Source: Caldilineaceae bacterium | Lineage (GTDB): Bacteria > Chloroflexota > Anaerolineae > Caldilineales > Caldilineaceae | Assembly: GCA_965228585.1 (NCBI GenBank) | Contig: CBDDHX010000005.1 | Coordinates: 334,965 to 398,964, forward strand | Length of the DNA stretch: 64,000 bases | Direction: 5' to 3' | Part shown: positions 12,796 to 60,019 of the stretch, piece by piece | Numbering within the stretch: the stretch's first letter is position 1 | Layout: every line of letters starts with the position of its first letter | Program-made: the position numbers and the translations under genes | Notes under the pieces: model-generated | The model's database searches: none | Told to the model about the DNA's origin: nothing | Seen by the model: the letters and a program-made list of their open reading frames with translations, nothing else

Positions 12796-12853
12796 CTTGC
12801 CACATTGCTAGATGTTAAAGAAGAATGTTTACATGAAGACAAAGGAGTCTGAT

Positions 12854-14293
12854 GTGACAGTGAAACCAGGCACGGCGGAGCGTCCATTGCGGATTGCCAT
12901 CGTTGGTGCTGGCCCCTCTGCTTTTTACGCGGCTGGCGCACTTTTGCAGCAAAAAGATGTGTCGCTAAGCGTTGATATGTTTGACCGTCTGCCCACGCCC
13001 TATGGGTTGGTGCGTTATGGCGTGGCTCCCGATCACCAGAAGATCAAATCGGTGGCAAAGGTGTACGAGCGCACGGCTGCCAACCCCAATTTCCGCTTCT
13101 TTGGCAACATCGACTTTGGCACGGACATCACCCACGCCGATCTGCGCTGCCATTACGATCAGATCATCTATGCCGTGGGTGCTCAATCCGATCGTAAACT
13201 AGATATCCCCGGTGAAGATCTGGCCGGGAGCCTTTCCGCCACCGAATTTGTGGCCTGGTACAACGGTCATCCCGATTTTGCCGATTTAGCCATTGATCTC
13301 AGCGGCGAGGCCGCGGTTGTGGTGGGGGTGGGTAATGTTGCCATGGATGTGGCCCGCATCCTTGCCAAATCAGCCGACGAATTGCAGCAAACTGACATTG
13401 CCGACCACGCACTGGCCCAGCTGGCCAACACCAACATTAGAGATATCTATGTCTTGTCGCGCCGCGGGCCAGCACAGGTGAAGTTCACCCCGCCCGAGAT
13501 CAAAGAGTTCGGCGAATTGGAGAATGCAGATGTCATCGTCGATGGCACGGCACTCGTGCTCGATCCAGTCAGTGCAGCCGCCGCGGCAGCAAGTTCAGAG
13601 ACGCAGCGCAACCTGGAACACCTGCACGATTTCAGCGTGCGGTCGCCAGCGGGCAAAGAACGTCAGGTGCATTTTCGCTTTCTAGTTTCGCCGGTGGAAA
13701 TAGAGGGCGTGCCCAAAGAGAATGCCATGGCCAATGGCAGTGAAGTTGTCGCTGTTCGGGTGGAGAAGAACCGCCTCGAAGCCGATGAAAGTGGCTATCT
13801 GAATGCCGTGGGCACCGGTGAGTTTGAGACGATCCCTGCCAACCTGGTGTTGCGCTCGGTTGGCTATCGCGGGGTTGCACTGGAAGATGTGCCCTACGAC
13901 ACCCGCCGCGGCACCATTCCCAATACACAAGGACGCGTTCAGGATCCAGTCACTGGCACGGTTGTTGCTGGTGAATATGTGGTTGGGTGGGCCAAGCGTG
14001 GACCCAGCGGTGTGATTGGCACCAACAAGCCAGACGCGATCGAGACCGTGCAGCAGATGTTGGCCGATCTGCCGGATCTGCAACCCGCACCCGAACCGGA
14101 CCCGGCAGCGATCGATGCGCTGTTGGAAGAGCGCAAACTGGTCTTCGTCACCATCGAGGGCTGGCGCATTATCGATCAGCTAGAAGTGGCCAAAGGAAAA
14201 GAGCAAGGGCGTCCACGTATAAAGTTCACGCGCATCCAGGAGATGCTGGAGGCGCTCCACGCAGAAGTCCACATCAAAGCAACTGACGCATAG
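12854..14293 (+). CDS. fprA: NADPH-ferredoxin (adrenodoxin-type) reductase, FprA family
   Basis: RIAIVGAGPSAFYAAGALL and FDRLPTPYGLVRYGVAPDHQKIKSV match the FprA/AdR family. I prefer the GTG at 12854 because AAGGAG lies 6 nt upstream; the ORF track starts at 12812. Confidence 0.8.
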   Translation: MTVKPGTAERPLRIAIVGAGPSAFYAAGALLQQKDVSLSVDMFDRLPTPYGLVRYGVAPDHQKIKSVAKVYERTAANPNFRFFGNIDFGTDITHADLRCHYDQIIYAVGAQSDRKLDIPGEDLAGSLSATEFVAWYNGHPDFADLAIDLSGEAAVVVGVGNVAMDVARILAKSADELQQTDIADHALAQLANTNIRDIYVLSRRGPAQVKFTPPEIKEFGELENADVIVDGTALVLDPVSAAAAAASSETQRNLEHLHDFSVRSPAGKERQVHFRFLVSPVEIEGVPKENAMANGSEVVAVRVEKNRLEADESGYLNAVGTGEFETIPANLVLRSVGYRGVALEDVPYDTRRGTIPNTQGRVQDPVTGTVVAGEYVVGWAKRGPSGVIGTNKPDAIETVQQMLADLPDLQPAPEPDPAAIDALLEERKLVFVTIEGWRIIDQLEVAKGKEQGRPRIKFTRIQEMLEALHAEVHIKATDA

Positions 14294-14350
14294 CAGTTGC
14301 ACAAAGGCAAGAACGGTGCTGCGCTTGCCTTCACGCACATGGTCACACTA

Positions 14351-14391
14351 TCCACGGCCCACTCCGAAAGACGGGTGGGCCGTGGATTTTT
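14351..14391. terminator. Rho-independent terminator between convergent genes
   Basis: A perfect 12 bp stem (tccacggcccac 14351..14362 with gtgggccgtgga 14375..14386) is followed by TTTTT at 14387..14391. Confidence 0.8.
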
Positions 14392-14397: not shown

Positions 14398-15021
14398 CTA
14401 CGCTGCCGCTTCTTGGGCGCGGACCTGTTCCACGACCTGCACCAACACATCGTACGGCTGGGCACCCGAGACCAAATATTTGTTCTGAAAGATTAGCGCG
14501 GGCACACCATTGATGCCATAGCTGTGCGCCGTGGCAACATCGCCCAACACCGCCTCTTCCCAGACGGGATCATCGAGTGCCGCGCGAAATGCTGCGCCAT
14601 CGATGCCGGCAGCTTGCGCAATGGCGACCAATGTCTCGGTCTCGGCAATGTTCTGGGCTTCGTGCCAATAGGCGTGCAACACACCATCGTGATAGGCGGG
14701 GCCACTGGCGATGGATTCTGCATATTTTGCCCCCACGAGCGCGGGGCGGCTGTCGATTCCCCATGGCCCCTGGTTCAGATCGAGCCCATATTGCTCCTTG
14801 GCGATCTGATAGAGGCGTGGACGTCCGGCCATGATCTTCTCGCGGTATTCTGGCGGCAGCGGGGGGGCTTCGCGCGGGCGCAACTCGAAAGAACGCCACG
14901 CAACGGTAATGTCATGTGAGGCTGCGAGCTTCTCCAAACTGGAGGCTACGAGATAGCACCAGGGTCAGACATAGTCGGACCAGACGTCAATGTAGATGGG
15001 CGAGGCTGGAGTGTGAGTCAT
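14398..15021 (-). CDS. DsbA/FrnE-family thiol:disulfide oxidoreductase with an in-frame TGA at the first Cys of the CxxC motif (candidate selenoprotein, otherwise a pseudogene)
   Basis: The reverse complement from ATG 15021..15019 reads MTHTPASPIYIDVWSDYV-TGA-PWCYLVASSLEKLAASHDITVAWRSFELRP... The TGA occupies 14967..14965 as codon 19. DsbA/FrnE proteins read I.VD.WSD..CPWCY at this point. The ORF track only shows the part downstream of the TTG at 14937. Confidence 0.7.
14928..14946 (-). promoter_or_regulatory. Candidate SECIS-like hairpin downstream of the in-frame TGA
   Basis: The mRNA reads AGC-C-CUCCA-GUU-UGGAG-AA-GCU, giving a 5 bp apical stem plus a 3 bp lower stem. The apical loop GUU starts 25 nt after the UGA. 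The hairpin is small and unvalidated. Confidence 0.3.
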
Positions 15022-15358
15022 CGTGGTTCTATCCTGTTTCGTTTTCAAATGCACGGCTGTCATATACAACGGGTACAGCTACAGTTGCTACAGTAATGAG
15101 TTGCCAGGAGTTACCGGGGCCAAAGCGTAACCGCGCGGCGAGCAAAGCGGTTGCAGATTTCCACCGTGGCAGAAGCCTGTTGGAGCAGGTGCTGCCCAAT
15201 GGCACCGTTCAACCGAATGATGCAGAGATTGATCTTTGTTCAGAAATTGGACTTTGGTCAATATCCCGGTCGCTCGCTTTGCCGCAACAGACCATGCGCT
15301 TTCATCATCGCAGTGTGGATGCCGCGGGTGGTAAGGCAAAGCGTGATTCGGGAACTAC

Positions 15359-18028
15359 TCAGTGCGCATCGTTCTTGCTTTTGGGCCAGATAAAGCGGAA
15401 AGTTGCGCCGGCCCCTTCTTCTGATTCTACCACAATCGCCCCCCGCTGGTTGTCAATGATTTTTTTGACAATCGAGAGACCGATGCCACTGCCTTCGACC
15501 TTGTCGCGCGGCTGCAGCGTCTTGTAAATTTCAAAGATGCGGTCGTGATAGATCGGGTCGATCCCCGGCCCATCATCCTGAACCGCAAATTCTACCACAT
15601 CCTCCTTTTCCACCGCGGTTACCGTTACCGTGCCATCGGCTTGCCCGTGATGTTTGATCGCGTTGATGATCAGGTTGCGGAAGACAGTTTCCAGCGGAAC
15701 CTGCCACGTATAGATCGTGGGCAGCTGGCGTGGGATGCAAAGGGTGAACGGCGGCGTGAGGAGCAATTCTCCCACATTCTGTACCAACTGGTGGACATCC
15801 ACAAATTCTGGCTCGCCACGATAGCGATCTGCTCGCGAATAGGCAAGCAGATCCGTGAGCAAACGCTCCATGCGTACCGTTCGATCGCGCAGCTTTTCCA
15901 AATGTATACCCGACCCCTGGGGGAGCAGATGGCCCGCGTCCTCGGTGATCCAAGTGGCCAGGTTGTCTATCGCCCGCAGTGGTGCCCGTAGATCGTGGGA
16001 AGCAATATAGGCGAAGTGGTCAAGTTCCTGGTTGCGTCGTTGGAGCTCTGCTGTGCGTGCCGCCACCTGTTGTTCCAGCGTTTCGTTCAGCGAACGGAGC
16101 TTGGCTTCAACCTGGCGCGCATTTTGATAGAGTTGCAAATTGTCGACTGCCAGAGCGATTCGGTCGGCAATCTCTTCGGCCAACTGCTGGTCAGTCGGTT
16201 CAAAGGCTGGTGCCGTGCCAATACGGATCAGGCTGAGCGTGCCCACAATCGAATCGCGGATGCGTAGCGGAACAACGAGCGCAGAGGAGATCCCCAACAA
16301 GCGCAGGGTTGCCAGATGTTCCTCATCACGAGCTGTATGGACCAGGTGCTCGTCTGTCACCTGGGGCAGGAACAAGCTCTCGCCCGTCTGAAAGACTTGG
16401 CTCCGGCCCATCTCCATTGGAAATTGTGCAGCATCTCGGGGGTGAACTCGGGCTAGCGCAGAAAAGGTATGGCTGCCCTTTGCGTGCGCCAACGCGGCCT
16501 GGCGCAGCACCTGCTCGGTCGGTGTGCGCGCGGGGCTGGCCAACGATAGTGGACTAGCCTCAGCACTGTCTGTTTCAGCACTATCTGTCGTCAAGAAGTC
16601 AACCAAACACCAATCGGCAAACTCTTCGACGAGTAGTTCGGCCACCTGTTGCAAACTGTCTTCATATTCGAGCGAGGCGGCCAGAATGGTGCTGGCTCGG
16701 GCCAGCAGACGCAGCCGTGCTTCTGCTGCCTTGCGGGCACAGATGTCCTCGATGACCGAGATGAAATATTGGGGCTGATCCTCGGCGTCATATTGCAGGG
16801 TCGCGGTGAGATGGATCCAGATGATGGAGCCATCTTTGTGGATGTAGCGCTTTTCGGCTTGATAGCGATCGGTGGTGCGATCGATTAGCGACTGCAACCC
16901 TTGCAGATCATTGGCGAGATCTTCAGGGTGGGTGAGCTCCTGGAAGGTTAGCTGCAACAGTTCCTCTGCCGAATAGCCCACAATTGTAGAGAGCCGTTGA
17001 TTGACCCGCAACCAGAGACCATCCAATCCAATGTGGGCAATGCCCACCGCGGCATTTTCAAAGGTGCTGCGGAAGCTGGCTTCGCTGGTGCGCAGGGCCG
17101 CTTCGGTTGTCTTGCGCTGCGTAATGTCTAGCCCAGAAGGGACGAGATGGGTGATGGTGCCATTGCCATCAAAGATGGGTGCCAGTGTGAAGTCAATATC
17201 AATATATTCACCCGCAGCTACACGCACCAGAACGTCATGGCGCAATCGTTCGCCCTGCGCGGCGCGTTCAATGTCCGCTTTCATTTCGGCCTGCACTGCC
17301 GGTGAGTAGGACCACCAATAGGTCTCCCAGAATGGTTTGCCCACCACATCTTCGGGCTGTAAATTGGCCGATTTCAGCGCTGTCTGGTTTGCCTGGAGCA
17401 AGATTCCTTCTGGTGAGAGCAGACCAACAAACGAGAAGAGGTTATCGATGACCTGGCGCAGCTGCTCTTCGCTCTGTTGCAGCTCCCGTTCAGCCCGGAT
17501 TCGTTGTTGCAGATGGACGCGCAGTGCAATTTCATCTTCCACAATCGCCGCCACTTCCGACAACACTGCAATATCCCGGTCCGACCACTTGCGCGGCTTG
17601 TCGTCAATGACACAGAGCGCGCCGAGCGTTTCCCGATCGGGGGCATGGATCGGCACACCCAGGTACGCCATCACGTTGAGATCGACAATGGCCTTGTTTT
17701 CTGCCACCAATGGCTCGATCGTAGAATCGTTGATGCAGAGTGGTGCGTCATTGTTCACCACATGTTGGCAGAAGGAGTGCGACAGCGCTGTCTCGCGTGC
17801 GCTGTGCCAAGGCTCGGCCAATCCTTTGCTGCTCTTGAAGAATTGGCGGTCAGCTGTTACCAGCGAAACCAGCGATACTGGTGTATTCAACAGCTGGCTC
17901 GCCAATTCTGTCAGCCGGTCAAATGCCCGTTCCGGCTGGCTGTCCAGCAGTGCAGTCTCTGCCAGGGATCGCAGTCGAGCTGGCGAAGCGAGGACTGATT
18001 GTTCTGGTGGTTTGGATGATTGAGTCAT
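15359..18028 (-). CDS. Multi-sensor histidine kinase (GAF and PAS domains, HisKA, HATPase_c)
   Basis: H-box FAYIASHDLRAPL, N/G boxes NLIINAIKHHG and DDGPGI ... GSGIGLSIVKKI, and upstream GAF/PAS-like blocks. The ATG at 18028 (MTQSSKPP) is preferred. The track start at 18100 is a TTG inside a 15 bp tandem repeat. Confidence 0.85.
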   Translation of the reverse strand: MTQSSKPPEQSVLASPARLRSLAETALLDSQPERAFDRLTELASQLLNTPVSLVSLVTADRQFFKSSKGLAEPWHSARETALSHSFCQHVVNNDAPLCINDSTIEPLVAENKAIVDLNVMAYLGVPIHAPDRETLGALCVIDDKPRKWSDRDIAVLSEVAAIVEDEIALRVHLQQRIRAERELQQSEEQLRQVIDNLFSFVGLLSPEGILLQANQTALKSANLQPEDVVGKPFWETYWWSYSPAVQAEMKADIERAAQGERLRHDVLVRVAAGEYIDIDFTLAPIFDGNGTITHLVPSGLDITQRKTTEAALRTSEASFRSTFENAAVGIAHIGLDGLWLRVNQRLSTIVGYSAEELLQLTFQELTHPEDLANDLQGLQSLIDRTTDRYQAEKRYIHKDGSIIWIHLTATLQYDAEDQPQYFISVIEDICARKAAEARLRLLARASTILAASLEYEDSLQQVAELLVEEFADWCLVDFLTTDSAETDSAEASPLSLASPARTPTEQVLRQAALAHAKGSHTFSALARVHPRDAAQFPMEMGRSQVFQTGESLFLPQVTDEHLVHTARDEEHLATLRLLGISSALVVPLRIRDSIVGTLSLIRIGTAPAFEPTDQQLAEEIADRIALAVDNLQLYQNARQVEAKLRSLNETLEQQVAARTAELQRRNQELDHFAYIASHDLRAPLRAIDNLATWITEDAGHLLPQGSGIHLEKLRDRTVRMERLLTDLLAYSRADRYRGEPEFVDVHQLVQNVGELLLTPPFTLCIPRQLPTIYTWQVPLETVFRNLIINAIKHHGQADGTVTVTAVEKEDVVEFAVQDDGPGIDPIYHDRIFEIYKTLQPRDKVEGSGIGLSIVKKIIDNQRGAIVVESEEGAGATFRFIWPKSKNDAH

Positions 18029-18046
18029 GGCCAATTTGTTTGTAGA

Positions 18047-18106
18047 AGCGTTCGATACAGCAGCGTTCGATACAGCAGCATTCGATACAGCAGCATTCAA
18101 TAGAGA
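18047..18106. repeat. 15 bp tandem repeat x4 (agcgttcgatacagc) immediately upstream of the kinase start
   Basis: Read directly. It would encode AAVSN x3 if translated from the TTG at 18100. Confidence 0.85.
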
Positions 18107-19579: not shown

Positions 19580-19608
19580 TCCGGGGAGCGATCGCTCCCC
19601 GGATTTTG
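19580..19608 (+). terminator. Terminator: perfect 24 bp palindrome followed by a T-run
   Basis: tccggggagcgatcgctccccgga (19580..19603) is followed by tttt. It lies 45 nt after the crp stop. Confidence 0.7.
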
Positions 19609-19704
19609 TATGCCTTGCTCCCAATTGCAACTTCATTTATACTCACCAGCAGTGCAACTCTCTGTCCACCCCACCCTCACAATCAACACCGGAAAGGAAA
19701 CTCC

Positions 19705-21204
19705 ATGCGCGCGATCATGGTCATGTTTGATTCGCTGAACCGGCACATGTTGCCCCCCTATGGCTGCGACTGGACCCACGCCCCCAACTTCGCCCGCCTG
19801 GCCGAACGCACGGTCCGCTTCGACAACAGTTACATTGGCAGCATGCCCTGTATGCCCGCCCGCCGTGAACTCCATACCGGGCGCTATAACTTTTTGCACC
19901 GGGCTTGGGGACCGCTAGAGCCCTTTGACGATTCAATGCCAGAGTTGTTGGACAACAATGGCATCTACACCCACCTCTCCACCGATCACTATCATTATTT
20001 TGAGGATGGCGGCATGACCTATCACGGTCGCTACACCTCGTGGGATTTTGAGCGGGGACAGGAAGGTGATCCCTGGAAAGGGGTTGCCGGTGATTATGAT
20101 GTGCCCGAAGCGCTGGTGGTGCGTCGTTCGGTTAATGCCAACCCCAACTCGTTGAAACAGGCGTGGCGTCAGGATTGGATCAACCGTGACTACATGACCA
20201 CAGAAGAGGCTCAGCCGCAACCGCGCACCTTTCAGAATGGCCTTGAATTCATCCGCACCAACGCCGACGCCGACAAATGGTTCTTGCAGATCGAAACCTT
20301 TGACCCCCACGAACCTTTCTTTACCCAGGAAAACTACAAGGCGCTCTACCCGCACGAATACGATGGCCCCCACTTTGATTGGCCGCCCTATCGGCCGGTC
20401 GAAGAGACCCCAGAGCAGGTGCAGCACATGCGCTATCAATATGCCGCACTGCTCTCCATGTGTGATGTCTACATGGGCAAGGTGATTGATCTGATGGATG
20501 AACTTGATCTGTGGGAAGATACCATGCTCATCGTCTGTACCGATCATGGCTTCATGTTGGGCGAACATGATTGGTGGGCCAAGAACAGCCAGCCATGGTA
20601 CTCGGAGCTGGCACGAACCCCCCTCTTTATCTGGGACCCGCGCGCACAGCGGCGGGATGTTGCCGTGGATAGCCTGGCACAAATGACCGATCTCTCCGCC
20701 ACATTGCTCGATTTCTTTGACGTTCCCCTGCCCGATGATATGGAAGGTTTACCCTTGCGCGAGGCTGTTGCTTCCGGGGCAGCTACCCACGAGGCGGTGC
20801 TCTTTGGCGTGCACGGCGGCCATGTCAACGTAACCGATGGCCGCTATGTCTACATGCGCGCGCCGGTTACGCCAGAAAATGAGCCACTCTACGAATATAC
20901 GCTCATGCCGACCCGCATGCGCCGTCTTTTCACGCCAGAAGAGATGAGCGACACAGAATTGGTGCCGCCACTTTCATTTACCAAGGGGCTGTCAGTGCTC
21001 AAAAATGCCGCACGCATGTGGTCACAGGTCCATAGTTTTGAGACCCTCCTCTTCGATCTGGAGGCTGACCCAGAACAGGCAGAACCATTGCAGGATCGTG
21101 CCATCGAGGAGCGCATGATCAAGCTCATGGTGGCGCGCATGCAGGCCAACGATGCGCCGGCAGAGCAATATGTACGGCTGGGGCTGGAAGCCTATGTCGA
21201 ATGA
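19705..21204 (+). CDS. Sulfatase-family hydrolase (Cys-type formylglycine motif)
   Basis: MRAIMVMFDSLNRH..., CxPxR motif SMPCMPARRELHTGRY, and later CTDHGFMLGEH. A GGAAAGGAAA RBS precedes the ATG at 19705; the track starts at 19606. Confidence 0.85.
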   Translation: MRAIMVMFDSLNRHMLPPYGCDWTHAPNFARLAERTVRFDNSYIGSMPCMPARRELHTGRYNFLHRAWGPLEPFDDSMPELLDNNGIYTHLSTDHYHYFEDGGMTYHGRYTSWDFERGQEGDPWKGVAGDYDVPEALVVRRSVNANPNSLKQAWRQDWINRDYMTTEEAQPQPRTFQNGLEFIRTNADADKWFLQIETFDPHEPFFTQENYKALYPHEYDGPHFDWPPYRPVEETPEQVQHMRYQYAALLSMCDVYMGKVIDLMDELDLWEDTMLIVCTDHGFMLGEHDWWAKNSQPWYSELARTPLFIWDPRAQRRDVAVDSLAQMTDLSATLLDFFDVPLPDDMEGLPLREAVASGAATHEAVLFGVHGGHVNVTDGRYVYMRAPVTPENEPLYEYTLMPTRMRRLFTPEEMSDTELVPPLSFTKGLSVLKNAARMWSQVHSFETLLFDLEADPEQAEPLQDRAIEERMIKLMVARMQANDAPAEQYVRLGLEAYVE

Positions 21205-23850: not shown

Positions 23851-23924
<74 letters not shown>

Positions 23925-24030: not shown

Positions 24031-24056
24031 CTTCGCAAGGGTACGCCCCCTACAAG
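24031..24056 (-). repeat. REP element (GTAG + GC-rich hairpin) overlapping the RAYT stop codon
   Basis: The minus strand reads cttGTAGGGGGCGTACCCTTGCGAAG. The TAG stop of the RAYT gene is inside the GTAG tetranucleotide. Confidence 0.7.
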
Positions 24057-24742
24057 TACTGCCGAATATCGTTGAGGTAGTCGTCGATGGCTTGGGGAAA
24101 GGGTAACCCTAGACGGTTGGCGGGATTATCGGGATCATCATTCCACCGTCTAGGGTTGTCACGGATATAGTGGCGAATGGCCATCAATGTCCGAACATTG
24201 CGGATGATCTGCTCATAATAGTTACGTTGCCAAAATTTGGCGCGTTGCAGGCGGTCATGCCGTCTGATCCAATCTAAATATACTGTGCTTACCAACGACT
24301 TCCAAGCACCTACCACTTCTCCCAAAGCTGGTCGCTCCTTTACCGTCTGCGGCACCGGAATTATCCAATCCCATGTTGGGGGACGACGAGAGTCCGCCCC
24401 TGTGAAAGATTGCCCGTAAATCTGAATCTGCGCTGCCGACGGCGAGGAACCAGGCGATTTTCCTACCGAAGTGAGGTCAATCTCTGCGCCAGGATTGACC
24501 TCAAGCCAGATAACAAAATGTATGTGGTTGGGCATAACTGTAAAATTGTCGAGTCCAATTGTTGGAAACCAACTGGGTAGGGCAAGCCATACATCGCAAC
24601 AGATGTGGGTTAGAATCGGATCATCAAGCACACATTGCCGATTTTGTGTGCAAACTGTGACAAAATATGCCCCAGGTTGTGAGTAATCATAGCCTGCCTT
24701 GCGAATTGAGCGTCGATGATGGCTATCGGGATTGTATGTCAT
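24050..24742 (-). CDS. REP-associated tyrosine transposase (RAYT), IS200/IS605-like Y1 transposase family
   Basis: HUH motif PNHIHFVIW and Tyr motif WQRNYYEQIIRN. The start at MTYNPD (24742) is preferred because the track extension to 24805 runs through a REP. Confidence 0.8.
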   Translation of the reverse strand: MTYNPDSHHRRSIRKAGYDYSQPGAYFVTVCTQNRQCVLDDPILTHICCDVWLALPSWFPTIGLDNFTVMPNHIHFVIWLEVNPGAEIDLTSVGKSPGSSPSAAQIQIYGQSFTGADSRRPPTWDWIIPVPQTVKERPALGEVVGAWKSLVSTVYLDWIRRHDRLQRAKFWQRNYYEQIIRNVRTLMAIRHYIRDNPRRWNDDPDNPANRLGLPFPQAIDDYLNDIRQYL

Positions 24743-24754
24743 GACGGATCTCTC

Positions 24755-24833
24755 GTAGGGGCATGCCCTTGCGGCTGCCCTGGTTGATGACGACGGGTGT
24801 TCCATGGGGGCGACCGCAAGGGTGCGCCCCTAC
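24755..24833. repeat. Inverted pair of REPs just upstream of the RAYT start
   Basis: GTAGGGGCATGCCCTTGCGGCTGCCC (24755..24780, + strand) and GTAGGGGCGCACCCTTGCGGTCGCCCCC (24806..24833, read on the - strand). Confidence 0.7.
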
Positions 24834-28408: not shown

Positions 28409-29383
28409 CTATTCCACCCGATAGATAGTCGTGTGAGGAGGCGCAAACCCCTTGGGCCATTGCGTTTTGCTATTCACTTTTGCCCCAGCCAACTCAACGG
28501 TTGTAATCGCTTCTTCCTCTTTGAGCAAGAGCACCGCTTCACGCAAGTCACTAGTTTCCAACGCCGCGCCTTTCAGGGAGGCCCCCAGCAAGTTTGCCCC
28601 AATTAGATTTGCATCGGTTAAGTTTGCCCCCTCCAGCAGCGAATCTCTCAGATCAGCCTGACTCAGATCAGCGTTGGCAAGGAGCGCACCACGGAGTTGA
28701 TTGCCTTGGAACAATGCGCCAGAAAGTTGAACGCGCTGCAGGCGGGCGCCCCGTAAATTCACCCCCTCCAGATTCGCGCCCATTAATATGGTTCCAGTCA
28801 AATTGGCCCCACGTAAATTGGCACCAGGTTCACGGTCGCTGGGGGCAGAGAGATTGGCCCCCTGCACAAAGGCCCAGCTTAAGTCGGCACCGCGCAGATC
28901 AGCCCCGCTCAGGGTGATGCCACGCAGATCGGCACCGCGCAGATTGCACCCAATCAGCTTCGCTTTGACCAAGACGGCTGCCCGCAATCGCACATTACGC
29001 AGATCCACGGCCGCCAACGAGGCACCACTCAAATTGGCCCCGCTTAGATCCGCGTTATCGAGTTGGGAGCTAGCCAGATTGGCACCTGAGAGATTCGCTC
29101 CCACAAGCTGGGCATCGCGCAAATCTGCCCTGGCTAGATTGGCACCACTCAGATCGGCGCCGCTCAGATCCGCACCGCGGAGATTGGCACCAATGAATCG
29201 GGCCTGAATGAGCGAAGCATTGCGCAGATTGGCTCCCTGAAAGTCTGCACCAGAGAGATCGCGCTTAAAGAGGGAAACTCCCAAACAGCTTGGAGGACAC
29301 CCCCTGGGCAACCTGGCACCGCATGCGGACAAGAGTTGTAAGAGAGCAAGACAGACGACCCAAAATTTGAAATTTGCACTCAT
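28409..29383 (-). CDS. Pentapeptide-repeat lipoprotein
   Basis: Signal/lipobox MSANFKFWVVCLALLQLLSAC, then about 50 A(D/N)LxG-type pentapeptides (ADLSGANLSGA...). Confidence 0.85.
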   Translation of the reverse strand: MSANFKFWVVCLALLQLLSACGARLPRGCPPSCLGVSLFKRDLSGADFQGANLRNASLIQARFIGANLRGADLSGADLSGANLARADLRDAQLVGANLSGANLASSQLDNADLSGANLSGASLAAVDLRNVRLRAAVLVKAKLIGCNLRGADLRGITLSGADLRGADLSWAFVQGANLSAPSDREPGANLRGANLTGTILMGANLEGVNLRGARLQRVQLSGALFQGNQLRGALLANADLSQADLRDSLLEGANLTDANLIGANLLGASLKGAALETSDLREAVLLLKEEEAITTVELAGAKVNSKTQWPKGFAPPHTTIYRVE

Positions 29384-29396: not shown

Positions 29397-31616
29397 CTAC
29401 TGCCCCTCCTGAATCGAACTGATGATCACGGATAACTCCTCTGCCCACTCATATTGCGTCAGGAATGGATCCGGTTTAACCGGCTCTTCTGACGCCACAA
29501 TTGTCTCAATGAGACCATCCTCGCGGATTGTGCCAACGCGGGCCGTCTTGTATAGGTGGCGAGTTTCACCATCGAGCTTGACCAGCCCACCGGGAGCCAT
29601 CAACTCAATTTCGCGCGAAGCTGCTACCGCCAATAGCGCATCGGTTTCAGTTGAACCAGCCAATTCTACCAACTGTTTCCAAAGATAGACGGCGAAATAG
29701 CCAGCCTCAATTGGATCGGATGTCACTCGATCATCCCCATAGGTATTTTTATAGGCTGTTACGAAGGCAAAATTGTCCGTCGATTCGACTGTCTGGTAGT
29801 AGTTCCAGGTTGTTAGATGACCCAACAAAACGTCGGCCCCAATGAGCCTCACTTCTTCTTCGGCCACGCTCACACTCATAACCGGTAACCGATCCGATGT
29901 GAATCCTTCCTCCGCCAGTTGTTGAAAGAAGGCAGCACTGCTATCGCCGCCAAGCGTGCTAAAGATTGCATCCGGGGGGGAGGAGCTGAGCTGCATCAAA
30001 ATGTTGCTGAAATCGGTTTCACCCAGCGGCATCAGGACGTCACCCGTTACTGTCGCACCACTATCTGCCAGAAAGGCTTTTAAGATCGCATGGGTAATCT
30101 GTGGTAAAACAAAGTCGGAACCAATGAGAAAGATACGTTCATGGCCCTCATTGACCAGAAATTGAGCTGCTGGGATAATCTGTTGCGTTGGTTCTGCCCC
30201 CAAATAGAAGATGTTGGACGATTCTTCAAATCCTTCATACTGCACGGGATAAAAGAGCAAGCTGTTTAGCTCCTCTACCACTGGCAAGATCGCTTTGCGA
30301 CTGTCGCTCGTCCAGCTGCCAAAGATGGCAACGACTTCGTCATCAACAATGAGTTTGCGCGCTTTTTGGGCAAATACCTCTGGATCGCTGGAGCCATCTT
30401 CGATTGTGACCAGCAGCGGTCGCTCTAGCACACCACCGGCTTCGTTGATCTCATCAATGGCGAGCAGTGTGGCGTCACGTACCGCACTTTCACTGTTAGC
30501 CATTGGGCCGCTCAACGAATGCAGAATGCCAATCTTGATGGCGTTACTAATGTCAATTTCGTCTTCCTCTTCTGTGGTTGACGTGACCACCATCTCTTCG
30601 CTAACATCCCGATTGGGCCAGACCGTCTGGCCATTGAAGGTCGCACCTTCCAGTTTGGCATCGGCTAACATCAAGCTGAGCTGCAACTCATTTAATTCTT
30701 CAAGAGTACGATCCGAAACGAGATCAGCATCGGTCAGTTCGGAGAGCAACAGTCTGGAGCCAAGCAGGTTGGCACCATTGAGATTTGACCCACTGAGATC
30801 GGCTGCGATCAAGGTAGAGCCGACGAGACGACTGCCACTGAGGTTGGCAGAGGCCAAATCGGCACCGATCAAGCTAACGCCCAACAGCTCTGCGTTCGAG
30901 AGATCCGCACCGGCCAACATCGTGAGATTGAGCCATGCGCCACTGAGATTGCTCCCACTCAAATTTGTTCCGCTCAGATCCGCTCTGCTCAGGTTGGCGC
31001 CAGCTATATTGGCGTTGCTCAGTTTGGCACCATTTAATTTCGCGTCGACTAGATCTGCCGCCACCAGCTCAACACTGCGCAGGTCGGCACTTTCCAGCTC
31101 TACACCCATCATGTTGACGCCAAGCAGCGTCGTCTCCCTTAGATCAAGGCCGGTGAGATCCGCGCCATCCAGATCGGCACCATTTAAATTTGCCCCCGCG
31201 AGGTCGGCACCTGCAAAATTGGCTCGTTTTAAGTTTGCGCCCACAAACTTTGCATTGCGCAAATTTGTTCCCTCAAAATTGGCCGCGAGCAAGTTGGCTC
31301 CGCTAAAGTCGGCATTCATCAGATTGGCACCGGTAAACTTGGCATTTGCCATGTTTGCGTCGACGAACATCGCGTCTTGCAAACGCATGCCGCTCAGGTT
31401 GCGAGAAACCAGAATGTCGCCGACACAATTGGGGACACATCCCACCGAACTAATGATCCAGTGGCGCAAGCCAAAAGCCGTGCTGCCAAAGAGCAGCACG
31501 ATGATAATCAGACGACTTATAACTTGATTCTTAAAGTGATCCCATTTATCGATCAAAAGAAAGGCCAAGGCAAAAACAATCGCAAGAACGATAAGTAGGA
31601 GTAGGATCTGAAGCAT
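29397..31616 (-). CDS. Fusion protein: N-terminal TM segments, pentapeptide-repeat domain, and a type-1 periplasmic binding domain (UrtA/AmiC/Liv-like)
   Basis: [24 protein letters not shown], about 280 aa of pentapeptide repeats, then [42 protein letters not shown]...[18 protein letters not shown], typical of urea/amide/branched-chain amino-acid binding proteins. Confidence 0.75.
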
Positions 31617-35373: not shown

Positions 35374-37335
35374 CTATGCGCTCGTTGATTGGCAACTGTC
35401 CAGCGCACTCACCCGCTGGACAATCGGTTGCAATCCCGCCAACAGTGGTTCGAGCTGCCAGCTGTTTTTGCGCCACTTTTCCGCGGATGGTTCGGACAGT
35501 GTCATGCTGGAGGCTGGCAGCGAGTGGGAAACGTGCTGCTCGACATGGTCATCCCATTGCAGTTCAGCGAACCGCGCGATCCGATGAATGGTTTGTCTGG
35601 GCGAACGCACCAGATCATTGTAGCGCACGAGTCTCCAGTCCGCAGTGGGCAACGCTGCTAGATCGGCCAAAATCGTTGCATTTGCCTGCTGCCATTGGTA
35701 GGCCGCGATCTCGGCAATGGGCCGATCAATCAGTGACCGCCAGCCCGGCACCAACAGAAAATTCCACTCGCGATGGGGCCAGCCGGGCATGGCAGGATAG
35801 GGAACAAACCGTTGCGCGCGCCAGCCTTCCATCATGCTGCTAATGTTTGCGCCGGGCTCGCGATAGAGAAAAAGGAAGCGGGCCTCTGGAAAGACACTCT
35901 TTAAGAACGGAATCCGTAGCGCATTTTTGGGTGTTTTCTCCAACATCCGCACCCTATCAGGTCGCTGTTGAGCCGATAGCTCCAAATAGAGCTGACCACT
36001 TCGATCTTGCAACTGTTGCACAAATCGGCGCTGCAAATCCGTGGCAAGGTGGAGCGGAGCATCCACCGCGGTTAGTCGGTTCGATTGATAGCCATGGGCC
36101 GCTGGATGCAGTGATGGGATCGCTTCAATCAGTTCGTGGCTCTCTTCACCAATGGTCCATAATGCCGGAAACAGAGCCAGCGTTTCAAAGAGAAGCGTGC
36201 TGCCAGCCCGTGGTGCCGAGACAATGAAAAGCGGTTTCTCGAATTGTGGACAAGCCAGATCTACGCTGCTGGGCCTGTTGTTGGCAGCCTCTAGCTTGCG
36301 CTGTCGTTTATTAAGCCGTCGTTTATCAAGCTGTCGTTTGTGCAGAAAGAGACGTAAATTCATGGGCTCGGGCGTTCTCTTCGGAGCGGTCTGCAACATG
36401 GAGCGAATGACTTCAATGGCCGCTTTACCCTTGCTTGCCCTGCAAAGCCAGCGACTGGCTTTGGCGGCAACTTGTGGCACAAAGAAATAGAGAATCAGGT
36501 CTAAATAGGCGAGTTCGCCAGCCGTGTGGTGGCCAAACCGACCAAAGCACGCTGTCCATCTGTCGCGGAAGGTTGCCACAGCCTTGGTGAACGCATGGCG
36601 CGCGTGGGCGGGCATTTCGCTCTTGCCAACAGCCGCGAGGATCTCTGCGGTCAATTCCTGAATTTCTCTGGGCGTCAAGACCTCAAACGCATGGGGCTCA
36701 ATGAGGAGCTCACCCGCGTGCTCCCGTTGCAGATTATCGTCGGTGGTGCCCGGCTGTGCCTCTGCTGAAGCCAATTTGGTTTCCACAGCCAAGTAGATAC
36801 AGTCGTGGTCGCTTGCGTTGATTATTGCATGGGATTGTGCTGAGCCAACCAGCCAAGCCGTGCCAGCGGGCAGATGGATCTCCTGCCCCTTGTCAATAAA
36901 TTTGACGTCAGGGTTGGTCACAATCGGTATGTAGATGGTTTGGCGACGAAACGCATGATACGAGGCATCGGCAAGGTCAGGCGTTTCTCTTCTGCCTGCC
37001 AAACGGAGCAAGCAACAGCGCGAGAGCGGACGTGCAAATGTATGTAGCAGCTGCAGCAGAGATGGCGACTGCTGCAGCTGCGGTGTCGGCTGCATGGGGC
37101 CAGCAATGGCATAGTCCCGATTGGGCGTGCCGCCGACTGAAATCAAGGGCAGCACGTAAACATTTGCTGGTTCGCCTGGGTAAGCAATCCATTGCTGTCG
37201 ATTCAGTCGGGCCACCTCACGCTGCAAACACTCGCTATCGGAACGCTTGGCTAGTTTGTACAGATCGATGTTCTGGTTTACCACGTCTGCTCCTTCAAAT
37301 CGAATAATACCCGCTACCACGTCAGATTGGTTCAT
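35374..37335 (-). CDS. Two-domain protein: N-terminal cupin (aspartyl/asparaginyl beta-hydroxylase-like, weak) fused to a C-terminal PAPS-type sulfotransferase
   Basis: The C-terminal half has the 5'-PSB loop LFIVSAPRAGSTLLFETL and LEKTPKNALRIPFLKSVFPEARFLFLYREPGANISS. The N-terminal half reads TIYIPIVTNPDVKFIDKGQEIHLPAGTAWLVGSAQSHAIINASDHDCIYLAVE, resembling Asp_Arg_Hydrox. The start at MNQSDV (37335) is preferred because the track extension crosses a family B repeat. Confidence 0.65.
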   Translation of the reverse strand: MNQSDVVAGIIRFEGADVVNQNIDLYKLAKRSDSECLQREVARLNRQQWIAYPGEPANVYVLPLISVGGTPNRDYAIAGPMQPTPQLQQSPSLLQLLHTFARPLSRCCLLRLAGRRETPDLADASYHAFRRQTIYIPIVTNPDVKFIDKGQEIHLPAGTAWLVGSAQSHAIINASDHDCIYLAVETKLASAEAQPGTTDDNLQREHAGELLIEPHAFEVLTPREIQELTAEILAAVGKSEMPAHARHAFTKAVATFRDRWTACFGRFGHHTAGELAYLDLILYFFVPQVAAKASRWLCRASKGKAAIEVIRSMLQTAPKRTPEPMNLRLFLHKRQLDKRRLNKRQRKLEAANNRPSSVDLACPQFEKPLFIVSAPRAGSTLLFETLALFPALWTIGEESHELIEAIPSLHPAAHGYQSNRLTAVDAPLHLATDLQRRFVQQLQDRSGQLYLELSAQQRPDRVRMLEKTPKNALRIPFLKSVFPEARFLFLYREPGANISSMMEGWRAQRFVPYPAMPGWPHREWNFLLVPGWRSLIDRPIAEIAAYQWQQANATILADLAALPTADWRLVRYNDLVRSPRQTIHRIARFAELQWDDHVEQHVSHSLPASSMTLSEPSAEKWRKNSWQLEPLLAGLQPIVQRVSALDSCQSTSA

Positions 37336-37424
37336 GGATGTTCCGTGGGGAACGTCGCCTTGTCTTCGACCGTAAGCACCGGCCTGTGGATGCCCCGGTT
37401 GCGATGGCAATGTAGTCGGTCTCT

Positions 37425-37497
37425 GCCCTGAAATTCTCTGCGCCGATATCGGTGCCTGGAGGTAGTCCAGGCACCACAACCGACTTGCAGAAAGGGC
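37425..37497. repeat. Family B palindromic element (cctgaaattctctgcg ... cacaaccga.tt.cag.a)
   Basis: ccctgaaattctctgcgccgatatcggtgcctggaggtagtccaggcaccacaaccgacttgcagaaagg. Other copies are listed below. Confidence 0.8.
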
Positions 37498-37567
37498 TCT
37501 CATTGCACGCAATGCTTACGCCACACTGTACAAGTCGAGAGCAGCTGTTGCACTGCGCCGTTGCCCG

Positions 37568-42686: not shown

Positions 42687-45572
42687 CTATTTTTTCGGCA
42701 GTGCCACTGGAGCAACTTCCTCTTGGACACCCAACTGTCGAGCCATCCAGTCGCCCGCGACCGGCATGACTTCGCGCGCGCGGCTAAAGCAGCAATGTTC
42801 AACATCGTCCAACAGCCACAGTTCCGTTGCGCCCTGTGCCCACGCCTGAATCCGTTCAATCTGTGCCACGGGCACAATGTGATCCAGCGTGCCGTGGATG
42901 AGAAAGAGTGGCTGCGTGATGGCCCGTGGCACGGTTGCAAGGTTGATTGGCCCCTGCGGATCCATCAACTGTTCCGGCGCATCAAAACCAAAGAGACGGG
43001 CGGTGACGAGTTGATTGCGGGGCGCCAAGTTGCGCGTGGTGCTGCCATCAAATGGGCCGCTCAGGCTGATACAAGCGGTGACGCGTTGCTCCATGGCCGC
43101 GGCGCGCAGCGCCATGTAGCCGCCCAAGCTCACCCCAAAAAGACCGATCCGGGTGGCGTCAACTTCCGCAACTTGGCACACCAGATAGTCAATGGCCGCG
43201 CCGACCACGCTTTCAAAGTCACCGTGCATGAGGGCGCTATCGACAAGCTCACCTTGGCCCGGGCCATCAAATGCAAGGACCGAGATGCCGCGTTCCAAAA
43301 AGTATTCGCCCCACTGATGCAGCTCCGCCTCTTTGGAAAATTCAAAGCCGCCCAGCAGGATAATACAAGGCGCGCCCGGCTGGGCGACCCGCAGATAGCC
43401 GGGCAGCTTCATCCCCCGATAGGGAATGGCGACCCGTTGGCAGCGCGGTCTACTGAGCGTGGCCAACTGCCGATAGGCGTGCCAACATTTTTCCTGGTAA
43501 TGCTTGCGTTGCTCCACATCAATGAACATCTGGACAAAGTGATAGTAGTTCACCACCATCTGCCACCACTGGCAGGCAGATTGAGTTCGATGCGCAGCCG
43601 CAGCTGACTGGGCGGCACGCTCATACCGTTCGGCAAATTTCACCAGTTCGGCACTCCAAGAGGCTGGATCGTGGGCATTTTGGTTCGCCTCTTGCAGATC
43701 GTAATGGCTGATCCCAAAGGCGGCTGCGCGTAGGTGGAGCAGCGACACATTGGCACGCAGATGCTGCACTGAATAGCCAATGTTCTGATCGGATTTGCGA
43801 CTTGCTGCTTTTGCCGCACGGCTTTGTGGGGCGCGTTGATCATAGATCCATTCGGCCAGCGCACGGATGCTTTGCAGCGCCTCTAGCTCGAGCTCCTCGT
43901 CATAAAATTCGAGCTGGAAACGCTCTTTGATCAAGGCTGTGAGCCGGACCAACGCAATCGAATCCAGATTCAGCCCTGTGTTGAGCAGCGCCATCTCTGG
44001 TTCAATTTCGGCTGGTGCCATCTGGATCTCCAGCATATCGACCAAAAGATGGGTTAGACCATCGATGATGTCATCGACAGAAGTGATCGACTTTGCTGCC
44101 CGCGGGCTGACAGGCTCCTCAACAGAAAGTTGGGCCTGTTGAATCAGCGCCTGTTGATCCACCTTGCCGCTGTGGAGCAGGGGCAGCGACGCCATGACGC
44201 GCACTTCATCGGGAACAGCATAACGGGGCAGCTTGTCGAAGCAACGACGGCGCACCTGCTGACTGTTGAGGGCAACACCTGGCTCTGGAATACAGAAGGC
44301 AAACAGCGCTTGACCCCGTTCCGTCTCTTGGCCAGAGGCCACCACGACTGCCTGGGCAATCTCCTCGAACTCTTCCATGATCCGCTCAATATCGGAGAAC
44401 ATGACCAAATAGCCGTTGCGGTTGGTGCTATTTTTAGCACGCCCCACCAGCCGAATGCTCCCTGTATCTGTCACTGTGGCCAGATCGCCGGTGTCAAACC
44501 ACGCACCTTCTCTATTCTGTTGCAGCCAAGTGCCGGTTTCATCCACGTAGCCCACAAAGCTAACCGTATTCTGACATTGCAGTTCCCCAACACCCGTTGC
44601 GGGGTCCGGCTGCTGGATCTGCAGGTTGGCCGTTTGCAGCGGTTGACCAATGGTCGTGAGCTTGCTCTCGAGTGGATCGTGGGGAGCGCAGCCCGCCACG
44701 GTCCCCAATTCCGAACTGCCATATATGTTGATGAGGGTGCCACCAATCTGCTCATCAAAGCGGCGGAACAGGTCATCACTGATCCGCTGTGCGGACGTGA
44801 CCACCACCTTGTATGCGCGCGGCGTCGAGAAACCAGGCAGCAGCTGGTCGCAGATTGTCGGTGTCAGGAAGGCCACGTTGGGCTTGAATATTTTTTCGCG
44901 GGCAAAGTATTGCAGATGATTGCTGTTGCTTTGCAGATCGATCGACGCGCCCGCGGCAAACGCAGGCAGAAATGCACCGGCCAACCCGTAAATGTGGGCC
45001 AGCGGGATCGGGATCGCGACTCGGTCGCTGGCCTCGAGCGCGTATTTTTTGACGCAATTGTGCGCGTTGCCGATAAAGTTGTCGTGGCTGTGAACGACAA
45101 TTTTGGCGTTGCCCATGCTGCCGGACGTCCGCAGGTAGATGCACCGTGGTCCATGATCTGTTCCCGCGGGCAAGGGCTGGAACGCTTCATTCGCCTCAAC
45201 GGTCAGCAAGCGTACGGGATACTGTGCCCCATTAGCATCTGCATCAGCGCTGCCCGCATCGATCCGCACGCGGTAGCGGCAAAATTGGGGCACCGGTGTG
45301 AGCGCTGCCTGATTTTGCGCTACCGGGGGCAGCAGGAAAAAGCTGATGCCTCGCTCCATGAGCGCGAAGATCGTCAACGCGGCGGGGATCGCGTTGGGAC
45401 ACTCCAGCGCAAGGCAGTCGGTTGCCTTGACACCCTGGGCCAGCAGGTGGTCGCCAACCGCGGCCACCAACGACGTCAGTTCGGCATGGGATACGGTGAA
45501 CTGACCGTCGGTAATCAGACTGCTTCGGGCCGTCTCTGCCGAGGCGACCCGGTCTAGAAGTTGAGCAAACAT
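42687..45572 (-). CDS. Tri-domain enzyme: acyl/aryl-AMP ligase (adenylation), carrier protein (phosphopantetheine site), alpha/beta-hydrolase
   Basis: AMP-binding core LRTSGSMGNAKIVVHSH with later GDLATV...GRAKN. The carrier motif is GLNLDSIALVRLTALIKERF. The hydrolase nucleophile elbow is GLFGVSLGGYMA, with HGTLDHIVP near the C-terminus. Confidence 0.8.
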   Translation of the reverse strand: MFAQLLDRVASAETARSSLITDGQFTVSHAELTSLVAAVGDHLLAQGVKATDCLALECPNAIPAALTIFALMERGISFFLLPPVAQNQAALTPVPQFCRYRVRIDAGSADADANGAQYPVRLLTVEANEAFQPLPAGTDHGPRCIYLRTSGSMGNAKIVVHSHDNFIGNAHNCVKKYALEASDRVAIPIPLAHIYGLAGAFLPAFAAGASIDLQSNSNHLQYFAREKIFKPNVAFLTPTICDQLLPGFSTPRAYKVVVTSAQRISDDLFRRFDEQIGGTLINIYGSSELGTVAGCAPHDPLESKLTTIGQPLQTANLQIQQPDPATGVGELQCQNTVSFVGYVDETGTWLQQNREGAWFDTGDLATVTDTGSIRLVGRAKNSTNRNGYLVMFSDIERIMEEFEEIAQAVVVASGQETERGQALFAFCIPEPGVALNSQQVRRRCFDKLPRYAVPDEVRVMASLPLLHSGKVDQQALIQQAQLSVEEPVSPRAAKSITSVDDIIDGLTHLLVDMLEIQMAPAEIEPEMALLNTGLNLDSIALVRLTALIKERFQLEFYDEELELEALQSIRALAEWIYDQRAPQSRAAKAASRKSDQNIGYSVQHLRANVSLLHLRAAAFGISHYDLQEANQNAHDPASWSAELVKFAERYERAAQSAAAAHRTQSACQWWQMVVNYYHFVQMFIDVEQRKHYQEKCWHAYRQLATLSRPRCQRVAIPYRGMKLPGYLRVAQPGAPCIILLGGFEFSKEAELHQWGEYFLERGISVLAFDGPGQGELVDSALMHGDFESVVGAAIDYLVCQVAEVDATRIGLFGVSLGGYMALRAAAMEQRVTACISLSGPFDGSTTRNLAPRNQLVTARLFGFDAPEQLMDPQGPINLATVPRAITQPLFLIHGTLDHIVPVAQIERIQAWAQGATELWLLDDVEHCCFSRAREVMPVAGDWMARQLGVQEEVAPVALPKK

Positions 45573-45593
45573 TGCGTGTGCCTTTTCTGCGTC

Positions 45594-47222: not shown

Positions 47223-47321
47223 GGTCCTTCTCCTGGAACTTTTTCAACGGAGTCATGAGGATTACACAGCGTTTGCTCTGCATGATCCTCTACCCCCTGT
47301 TTACTTTTGGCGTAGCAACAA

Positions 47322-48968: not shown

Positions 48969-49076
48969 ACTTTCCTTCGGCTATCGGCGAGTGACAGTTC
49001 ATGCAATCTATCTAGCGTGAGAGCAGAGTGGAAATCACATGTTGGGTGTGCAGCAGCCCTACCCCCAACCGTGAAT

Positions 49077-51371: not shown

Positions 51372-51372
51372 C

Positions 51373-52233
51373 TTATTTTGTCAGGACAACAGTATAATGA
51401 GATACAGTTTCACCTGGATCTTGAACGTTGGGCTGATCTGGCTGCCACAACGAAATCGGCAGAATACCGTGTGGCGTCGGCTGCCACTTGCCCAGTAGTG
51501 GGCGAATCGTATCGGGAACACGCCGCATATATTTGCGCTTTTTCACCGTATCGGCTGGCATGCCAAACGAATCAAAATCCACGGCAAGATAACTATTGGG
51601 TGGTGCCATTTCGTATAGCTGCTCAAATGTTTTCGTCAATAGATCATCTTCGAGGAAGCAGACCACGCCCGCAATGCAGATGCCCAGGCGCTCATTTGCA
51701 TGTGGTATCTGCCCTGAGCTTCTCTGCGTCGACGTGGCTGGCTGGCGGTGGTTCAAGCCCCACAACCGAATTTCAGGATAGGCTTCTAGCAGGGTGTTCG
51801 TGCTATCCCAGTCAAACGTAGAGAGATCAGTGACATCGCAATAGAGATAGTCACAGCGTGGGTTGTCTCTCAATATCGCTTTACCAATGTCTACATTTTT
51901 CAGATCGATGTCGCCATACAAGACCATTGCATCTGGCACAGCCTCATGCAGGGTACCCAGCGTGGGAATCCCCCCGCCAAAGACGAGAAAACGATTGACG
52001 TTTTGGCTCTGCATGTAGCGGGCCGCTCTGCCAAAAAAGCTGCGCACGTCACGAAACATCTGGGGATACCTCGCGTCCAACGCAAGCATTCTGCCGCCAG
52101 CTGCTTTGTCCGCGGGAAAATGATGCTTCCCACCCAACAGATAATCAACGATCCGTCCAGAATTTGGGCGTTCAGGTCCTGTCAACGTTCTGCTTCCTTT
52201 CAGCTTGTCCACCCAAAATTCCTGGTGGCACAA
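51373..52233 (-). CDS. SAM-dependent methyltransferase, Methyltransf_19 (former DUF574) family, carrying an in-frame family B element
   Basis: GRIVDYLLGGKHHFPADKAAG...FGRAARYMQSQNVNRFLVFGGGIPTLGTLHE matches the family pattern. Its stop lies 1 nt from the ATPase start. Confidence 0.65.
   Translation of the reverse strand: MCHQEFWVDKLKGSRTLTGPERPNSGRIVDYLLGGKHHFPADKAAGGRMLALDARYPQMFRDVRSFFGRAARYMQSQNVNRFLVFGGGIPTLGTLHEAVPDAMVLYGDIDLKNVDIGKAILRDNPRCDYLYCDVTDLSTFDWDSTNTLLEAYPEIRLWGLNHRQPATSTQRSSGQIPHANERLGICIAGVVCFLEDDLLTKTFEQLYEMAPPNSYLAVDFDSFGMPADTVKKRKYMRRVPDTIRPLLGKWQPTPHGILPISLWQPDQPNVQDPGETVSHYTVVLTK
51710..51784. repeat. Family B palindromic element located inside the methyltransferase coding sequence (75 nt, in frame, no stop)
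   Basis: gccctgagcttctctgcgtcgacgtggctggctggcggtggttcaagccccacaaccgaatttcaggatagg. It is translated on the - strand as YPEIRLWGLNHRQPATSTQRSSGQ. Confidence 0.8.
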
Positions 52234-52297
52234 AGTACTCTTGCGGACGCTCCGCGTCTAACGTGGGGCTCCACACAGCGCGTGCGGGGTTGGCGGT

Positions 52298-55745: not shown

Positions 55746-55758
55746 GCGGAACTGTGCC

Positions 55759-60010: not shown

Positions 60011-60019
60011 AATCTCCTC

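Follow-up and report, generated by a model that had tools for sequence, protein, structure and literature searches.

DsbA-like proteins carrying a UxxC motif (COG2761), together with a predicted selenocysteine insertion sequence (SECIS), were described as a new selenoprotein family in the Sargasso Sea study of Zhang, Fomenko & Gladyshev in 2005 (PMC1088965). This family was represented in four sequenced bacteria in a 2006 survey, in which three selenoprotein families were already known in Chloroflexi, and in 41 organisms in the study of Peng et al. in 2016 (PMC5029168). Its entry in a 2026 review reads 'DsbA-like protein form 1, PF01323, UxxC' (PMC13188914). In the present study, we analyzed a stretch of 64,000 nucleotides (nt) from a Caldilineaceae bacterium (assembly GCA_965228585.1, contig CBDDHX010000005.1, positions 334,965 to 398,964), hereafter the window, the minus strand of which carries a DSBA-domain gene with an in-frame TGA at the first cysteine of its redox motif. 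Based on comparisons of sequences, we consider it very probable that this TGA is a selenocysteine (Sec, U) codon in a cytoplasmic thiol-disulfide oxidoreductase of the DsbA/FrnE type with the motif U19-P-W-C22.

The frame was read directly from ATG 15021 to TAG 14400..14398 and comprises 207 codons. Its translation is MTHTPASPIYIDVWSDYV-TGA-PWCYLVASSLEKL..., without further stops until the TAG. The TGA (14967..14965) is the sole internal stop and occupies the first Cys of the CPWC redox motif; the peptide across codon 19 is IYIDVWSDYV-U-PWCYLVASSLEK. An earlier note on this DNA, made from the letters alone, had followed the frame from ATG 15021 through the TGA into an open reading frame (ORF) of 179 amino acids (aa) and had placed the TGA at the redox-active N-terminal Cys, and both statements were confirmed. 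When Cys was substituted at the TGA, the Pfam domain DSBA (PF01323) matched residues 11-196 (E=1.6e-34), and this match crosses the stop. In an alignment with FrnE of Deinococcus radiodurans (PDB 5cnw, E=5e-25), the TGA position corresponds to the first Cys of DIWSDIACPWCYI. AGGA at 15035..15032 precedes ATG 15021, and a second in-frame ATG at 15063 has no Shine-Dalgarno-like sequence. A mechanical ORF list gave just the 179 aa ORF with a TTG start (14398..14937) for this gene, and the source annotation only a fragment of 144 aa (P0007) starting at Met64. We are confident that the gene encodes a complete selenoprotein of 207 residues that was mis-annotated as a fragment of 144-179 aa.

The predicted protein of ~23 kDa ends with ...VEQVRAQEAAA, and Cys22 is its sole Cys. 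We assign it to the DsbA family as a single-domain, FrnE-like member. Only 10 residues, which are non-hydrophobic, stand ahead of strand beta1 (IYIDVWSD). Since there is no N-terminal hydrophobic segment, the protein is most likely cytoplasmic, similar to D. radiodurans FrnE. Pro174 presumably forms the cis-Pro loop expected opposite the active site, as in DsbA/thioredoxin folds.

Relatives were sampled as 80 loci, all from Chloroflexota, with one genome per GTDB species. The loci were retrieved by peptide patterns well downstream of the TGA codon ([FY]ELRP..., AL.GAK.AE), so that their selection did not depend on what this codon was. The homologous codon was TGA in 77 of the 80 species genomes and TGT or TGC in three (L040, L051, and L077). 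The carriers of TGA belong to Caldilineaceae, Anaerolineae, Thermoflexales, Ardenticatenaceae, Promineifilaceae, Aggregatilineales, Chloroflexaceae, Roseiflexaceae, Ktedonobacterales, and other groups, and the block around the codon, DVWSD(Y/F)(V/A/N)-x-P(W/F/Y)C, was kept throughout the 80 loci. A metagenome-assembled genome of Litorilinea aerophila (locus L058) is one of the carriers of TGA. TGA was also present in L090, L091, L093, and L094, of which L090 and L091 are metagenomic. The nearest relative of the window protein was encoded by a Caldilineaceae metagenome-assembled genome (L001, 80% identity). Statistics on codons and the hairpin were based on 78 Sec forms, namely, the window gene and the 77 TGA loci. 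Among these 78 sequences, 74 distinct 48-mers were found; therefore, the related loci are not copies of one contaminant.

These data bear on the possibility that a nonsense change from TGC/TGT to TGA, or a miscalled base, inactivated a Cys-type DsbA/FrnE gene, which the earlier note had offered as its alternative. One transition or transversion is sufficient for this change, the source annotation calls merely the fragment P0007, and the sel genes were not found in the window. However, the identical TGA recurs across the clade in independently assembled species genomes from several orders, the frame is unbroken and the amino-acid sequence preserved both before and after the TGA, and an RNA hairpin (see below) is specific to the TGA forms. 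A decaying gene would keep none of these features, and we give a pseudogene or sequencing error almost no weight. Genome-wide reassignment of UGA was also ruled out because TGA is the ordinary stop of 11 of the 31 Pfam-supported genes in the window.

The codons upstream of the TGA were variable at synonymous sites in the 78 Sec forms. Ser at position -4 from the TGA was encoded by TCA (32), TCG (19), TCC (16), and TCT (11), Asp at -3 by GAC (49) and GAT (29), and Val at -6 by four different codons, while Trp at -5 was TGG in 78/78. Since the amino acids are kept and the synonymous sites are free, the N-terminal 18 codons are translated in frame. In a protein search, 21 of the 22 best matches, including all of those at 75-83% identity, were annotated as proteins of 167-186 aa. 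Most of these short annotations start at or just after M/V-ASSLEKL, beyond the redox motif, with a few starting further downstream; the match at 100% identity (P0007) was the window's own fragment. More distant relatives (~55% identity) were mostly full length with CPWC. Approximately 47 of the 120 best database homologs had an annotation N-truncated just past the motif, and starts of this kind are the usual signature of an unrecognized Sec codon. The DsbA-like family lacks a selenoprotein model of its own in NCBIfam, which accounts for the truncated annotations; the best NCBIfam match was NF041057 ('Rcas_1661 family thioredoxin-like (seleno)lipoprotein'), which was partial and far below the cut-off.

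The short annotations would be correct if translation terminated at the UGA and the functional product was a truncated protein of 179 or 144 aa, without the redox motif, made from a downstream TTG, GTG, or ATG. In many relatives, the 'ASSLEKL' position is occupied by ATG or GTG, which results in predictions of 180-186 aa. However, the window gene has GTA (Val) at this position, which is not a start codon, and its first starts are the TTG of ORF 14398..14937 or the ATG at Met64. Strand beta1 and the entire UxxC motif of the thioredoxin fold would be absent from the truncated product. Furthermore, purifying selection acts at the protein level on the 18 upstream codons, and the Sec-specific hairpin would have no role. 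Termination at the UGA is, therefore, highly improbable.

The earlier note had reported a small hairpin with a GUU apical loop starting 25 nt after the UGA. The hairpin is real, with RNAfold pairing 14949..14924; however, it is the loop G that lies 25 nt past the UGA, and the core helix begins at 20 nt. This core (CUCCA GUU UGGAG, 14944..14932) encloses the apical loop GUU (14939..14937), which opens with G-U. The lower stem consists of an AA bulge (14931..14930) followed by G-C, C-G, and A-U pairs out to 14949/14924, and its register varies among the Sec forms. The published search model for bacterial SECIS elements allows approximately 16-37 nt from the UGA to the apical loop.

A hairpin of the CUCCA-GUU-UGGAG type was present in all 78 TGA forms, and the codons within the helix were frozen. 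Ser at +8 was TCC in 71/71, Ser at +9 was AGT in 77/77, and Leu at +10 was TTG or CTG in 78/78, while Glu at +11 was GAG in 63 and GAA in 5 Sec forms. Outside the helix, in the same genes, Ser at +16 varied freely (TCA/TCC/TCG/TCT = 17/14/11/4), and Leu at +5 and +13 was mostly CTC, with several alternatives. RNAalifold predicted the 5-base-pair (bp) helix from the 78 aligned sequences (alignment A2). With the structure fixed, 94.3% of cells were paired, compared with 30-52% when the 3' partner was slid by 1-3 columns. Changes on both sides of a pair were observed in 12 cells versus 1.6 +/- 1.2 in shuffles (0/500), and alternative pairs occurred at three positions (U-A to G-C/C-G, C-G to U-A, and C-G to G-C/A-U). 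L090 and L091 read TCC TTC AGT TTG AAG GAG, in which a Ser-to-Phe change is coupled with a Glu-to-Lys change and the helix is kept. The same CUUCA/UGAAG variant was found in L033, and a GGCCA/UGGCC variant in L061. As judged from these alignments, the hairpin is conserved, covarying, and specific to Sec forms.

The preference of the earlier note for Sec recoding was upheld by TGA at 77 of the 80 loci with TGT/TGC at the rest, by the translated upstream codons, and by the Sec-specific hairpin. The alignment of orthologs that it had proposed revealed mostly TGA with a conserved hairpin rather than TGC/TGT without one.

Several results weigh against a Sec codon with a SECIS-like hairpin. The window hairpin alone has a folding energy of -8.1 kcal/mol (z=-1.0), and 28 of 200 shuffles folded equally well. 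It is as short as the earlier note had remarked; since the z score was not significant, we dropped single-sequence thermodynamic stability as an argument, and the case for the hairpin is comparative. The number of pairs with a double change was 3, which was matched by 34 of 500 shuffles, with relatedness ignored. Rfam revealed no SECIS family in the whole window at the gathering threshold, and only chance matches in 14850..15050 at E<=10; this is unsurprising because the element is short and family-specific. None of selA, selB, selD, and tRNA-Sec was found within the window or in ~1.3 Mb of related loci. Selenium incorporation at codon 19 and its dependence on SelB and tRNA-Sec are inferred from sequences.

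In the search for the Sec machinery, Pfam detected no SelA, SelB, or SelD domain in 41 window ORFs (the 40 larger ORFs and the DsbA-like gene). tblastn with Escherichia coli SelA, SelB, and SelD (NC_000913.3) against the window and the 80 loci gave one weak GTPase-type match only. ARAGORN detected no tRNA-Sec in the window or in 60 related loci; the single tRNA of the window is tRNA-Lys(UUU) at 23851..23924 (+). The sel genes are not linked to the DsbA-like gene. A search for further selenoprotein candidates, as in-frame TGA beside Cys/Ser/Thr motifs, yielded nothing convincing. SelD, SelA, and SelB were scored as present in Caldilinea aerophila DSM 14535 (3 selenoproteins) and Anaerolinea thermophila UNI-1 (4 selenoproteins) (Table S1, PMC5029168). 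The same applies to Ktedonobacter racemifer (5 selenoproteins), Chloroflexus aurantiacus (3), Herpetosiphon aurantiacus (2), and others (PMC5029168).

The comparative data prove recoding and a cis-acting RNA, not which residue enters. Programmed recoding of the UGA without Sec may operate through a tRNA-Sec-like tRNA that carries Cys and a SelB-type factor, or through hairpin-stimulated near-cognate read-through with Trp or Cys. The failure to find the Sec machinery within the window is consistent with this mechanism, and tRNA-Sec species, including unusual tRNA-Sec-like ones, have been reported in Chloroflexi and other phyla (PMC5389517). An 8/4 form of tRNA-Sec has been reported for Chloroflexi. 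However, the published signature of bacterial selenoproteins (PMC1088965) is what is observed here: a UGA in the place of a redox Cys, exchanged for Cys codons in homologs, and then a stem-loop whose small apical loop contains G. The DsbA-like UxxC family is already catalogued as a selenoprotein family. Moreover, the cultured relatives were scored SelD+/SelA+/SelB+, and the insertion of Cys provides no evident reason for keeping a costly signal in place of TGC. We consider non-Sec recoding to be unlikely. It is similarly doubtful that the conserved UGA and the invariant CUCCAGUUUGGAG hairpin form a device that inserts Sec only sometimes or not at all, such as one inserting Cys in Chloroflexota lineages without selA/selD. 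If the UGA is a Sec codon, the organism decodes Sec, and its genome should hold selA, selB, selC, and selD and probably further missed selenoproteins.

We propose the following mechanism for Sec insertion. The UGA at codon 19 would be read by Sec-tRNA(Sec) delivered by SelB, which may be recruited by the mRNA stem-loop just 3' of the UGA (core CUCCA-GUU-UGGAG, with the loop G at 25 nt). This stem-loop would double as the coding sequence for Ser-Ser-Leu-Glu of helix alpha1. From knowledge of the family, Sec19 is expected to replace Cys as the exposed attacking nucleophile at the start of helix alpha1, with Cys22 resolving. The most likely chemistry is thiol/disulfide exchange by a product that forms a Sec19-Cys22 selenenylsulfide.

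The Cys relatives compared with the Sec forms were L040, L051, L077, L083-L089, L092, and L108. The helix was missing in L051 (ACC AGC CTC GAA) and L077 (ACA AGC TTA CAA) as well as in metagenomic Cys forms of the P0023 type (ACG AGT TTG GAG or ACA AGC CTG AAA). In L040, which has TGT, the hairpin was partly degraded (TCT AGT TTG GAA). P0004/L108 is a syntenic Cys ortholog with 69% identity and the same convergent Pyr_redox_2 neighbor as the window gene; it has TGC and reads TCT AGC TTG GCG, with the helix gone and a degraded remnant of the hairpin codons left. In a neighbor-joining tree rooted on Cys homologs of 31% identity, which carries no support values, Cys forms stood at at least three separate places inside the Sec clade, and P0004 would add one more. 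These results suggest that Sec is ancestral and near-universal in the Chloroflexota FrnE clade and that at least three independent Sec-to-Cys reversions occurred, with the hairpin decaying afterwards.

A motif resembling the hairpin was noted elsewhere. In several loci from Promineifilaceae/Ardenticatenaceae, the sequence (A/G)CCAGTTTGGAGG(G/A)AAC(A/C)GAA recurs at a distance of ~5 kb upstream from the DsbA-like gene (positions ~5214 in L020, ~5047 in L028, ~4939 in L053, ~5128 in L059, and ~1075 in L067). It shares a CCAGTTTGGAG core with the hairpin and has no TGA ahead of it. This motif is probably the ribosome-binding-site region of a conserved neighboring gene. A search of 1.3 Mb for the CCAGTYTGG hairpin elsewhere behind a TGA revealed nothing convincing.

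The features of the locus are summarized in Table 1. A gene for a Pyr_redox_2 flavoprotein (12812..14293, +) is convergent with the DsbA-like gene, and this arrangement recurs in the Cys-ortholog locus L108 and in approximately 10 close relatives. A functional link between the flavoprotein reductase and the DsbA-like oxidoreductase is possible. The inverted repeat between the two genes has a T-run on the + strand and is likely a terminator for the 3' ends of both. Upstream of the DsbA-like gene, on the same strand and after a gap of 338 nt, a GAF-PAS-PAS-GAF histidine kinase is encoded (15359..18100, -), which is not conserved in related loci. The clustering of flanking ORFs from the related loci revealed no widely kept neighbor that may serve as a conserved operon partner.

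Table 1. Positions of the features of the DsbA-like gene and of other genes in the window
Feature	Position	Strand	Basis
DsbA/FrnE-like coding sequence, predicted selenoprotein, Sec19, 207 codons including Sec	14398..15021	-	PF01323 E=1.6e-34; FrnE 5cnw E=5e-25
UGA codon 19, proposed selenocysteine, first position of U-P-W-C	14965..14967	-	TGA in 77/80 species genomes; also L090, L091, L093, L094
TGC, Cys22, putative resolving cysteine of UPWC	14956..14958	-	Cys at codon +3 invariant, 78/78 Sec forms
SECIS-like stem-loop within the coding sequence	14924..14949	-	RNAfold; RNAalifold; pairing; frozen synonymous sites; missing in Cys forms
Pro174 codon, G-V-P motif, putative cis-proline loop	14500..14502	-	V173 and P174 invariant, G172 nearly so (alignment A1)
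AGGA, possible ribosome-binding site, 10 nt upstream of ATG 15021	15032..15035	-	Read from the sequence
GC-rich inverted repeat, likely terminator	14350..14387	.	15-bp stem, TTTTT tail on +
AMP-binding + PP-binding + alpha/beta-hydrolase	42687..45572	-	Domain scan
Arylsulfotransferase ASST	45594..47222	-	Domain scan
Aromatic amino acid ammonia-lyase	47322..48968	-	Domain scan
P-type ATPase	49077..51371	-	Domain scan
S-adenosylmethionine (SAM) methyltransferase	51373..52233	-	Domain scan
NAD_binding_4 terminal reductase	52298..53575	-	Domain scan
Sulfotransferase	55068..55880	-	Domain scan
Radical SAM/HemN-like	56733..58016	-	Domain scan
Second AMP-binding enzyme	58475..60046	-	Domain scan

Other parts of the window were also noted. 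The minus-strand run 42687..60046 looks like a natural-product or sulfation cluster, and one more sulfotransferase and one sulfatase are encoded elsewhere in the window (entry coordinates 35374..37512 and 19606..21204). Two pentapeptide-repeat proteins are adjacent (28409..29383, -, and 29397..31616, -), the second of which is fused to a Peripla_BP_5/6 ligand-binding domain. The tRNA-Lys(UUU) gene adjoins an ORF (24050..24805, -) with a weak match to an IS200/Y1 transposase, and this neighborhood may be an insertion site.

General knowledge on selenoproteins is unchanged by the present results: the DsbA-like UxxC family has been known since 2005, and gene callers routinely truncate its members. 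The results are mainly of value as an annotation correction, which extends to the truncated calls for the ortholog in dozens of Chloroflexota genomes. The clade also provides a clean natural data set on a minimal bacterial SECIS element and on the cost and benefit of replacing Sec with Cys. It comprises 78 or more Sec forms, with several Cys forms nested among them, and the Ser-Ser-Leu-Glu codons are dictated by a hairpin of 13 nt that hardly varies.

Among the known systems, E. coli periplasmic DsbA has the same Pfam domain and fold class as the window protein, with a CxxC-type motif where helix alpha1 begins and a conserved V-P (cis-Pro) loop. However, its motif is CPHC, whereas the window protein has UPWC and no signal peptide. 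An E. coli-type DsbA ortholog was rejected because the score against NCBIfam NF008198 was 20.4 bits versus a cut-off of 279. The best relative with a solved structure is the cytoplasmic disulfide oxidoreductase/isomerase FrnE of D. radiodurans (PDB 5cnw, 5cp1). The two proteins share the N-terminal block (I/V)D(I/V)WSDxxCPWCY, and neither has a signal peptide. In contrast, FrnE has Cys-Pro-Trp-Cys and 260 aa with an extra C-terminal region, while the window protein has Sec-Pro-Trp-Cys, as predicted, and 207 aa. The extra region of FrnE, which carries a second CxxxxC motif, has no counterpart in the window protein; no second Cys pair was found in the C-terminal tail, Cys22 being the sole Cys.

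The RNA element resembles the SECIS element of E. coli fdhF, which is recognized by SelB. In both, a stem-loop in the coding sequence lies directly 3' of the UGA, G-U opens a small loop, and the RNA constrains the encoded amino acids. However, the upper helix of the window element has only 5 bp, its loop is the 3-nt GUU, and no bulged U is evident; its recognition by SelB is putative. Counted from the U of UGA (+1), the loop G of the window element stands at +29, compared with approximately +23 for fdhF.

The closest likeness, by published description, is to the DsbA-like form 1 family. The window gene is likewise PF01323, has Sec as the proposed first residue of UxxC with Cys in homologs, and shares a stem-loop just past the UGA with G in a small apical loop. 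On all sequence-level features, we assign it to the DsbA-like UxxC selenoprotein family. Nothing essential differs, with the window copy coming from an uncultivated genome. In the Chloroflexota clade, the Sec form is the majority state (77/80 species), and the sequence of the hairpin is nearly invariant.

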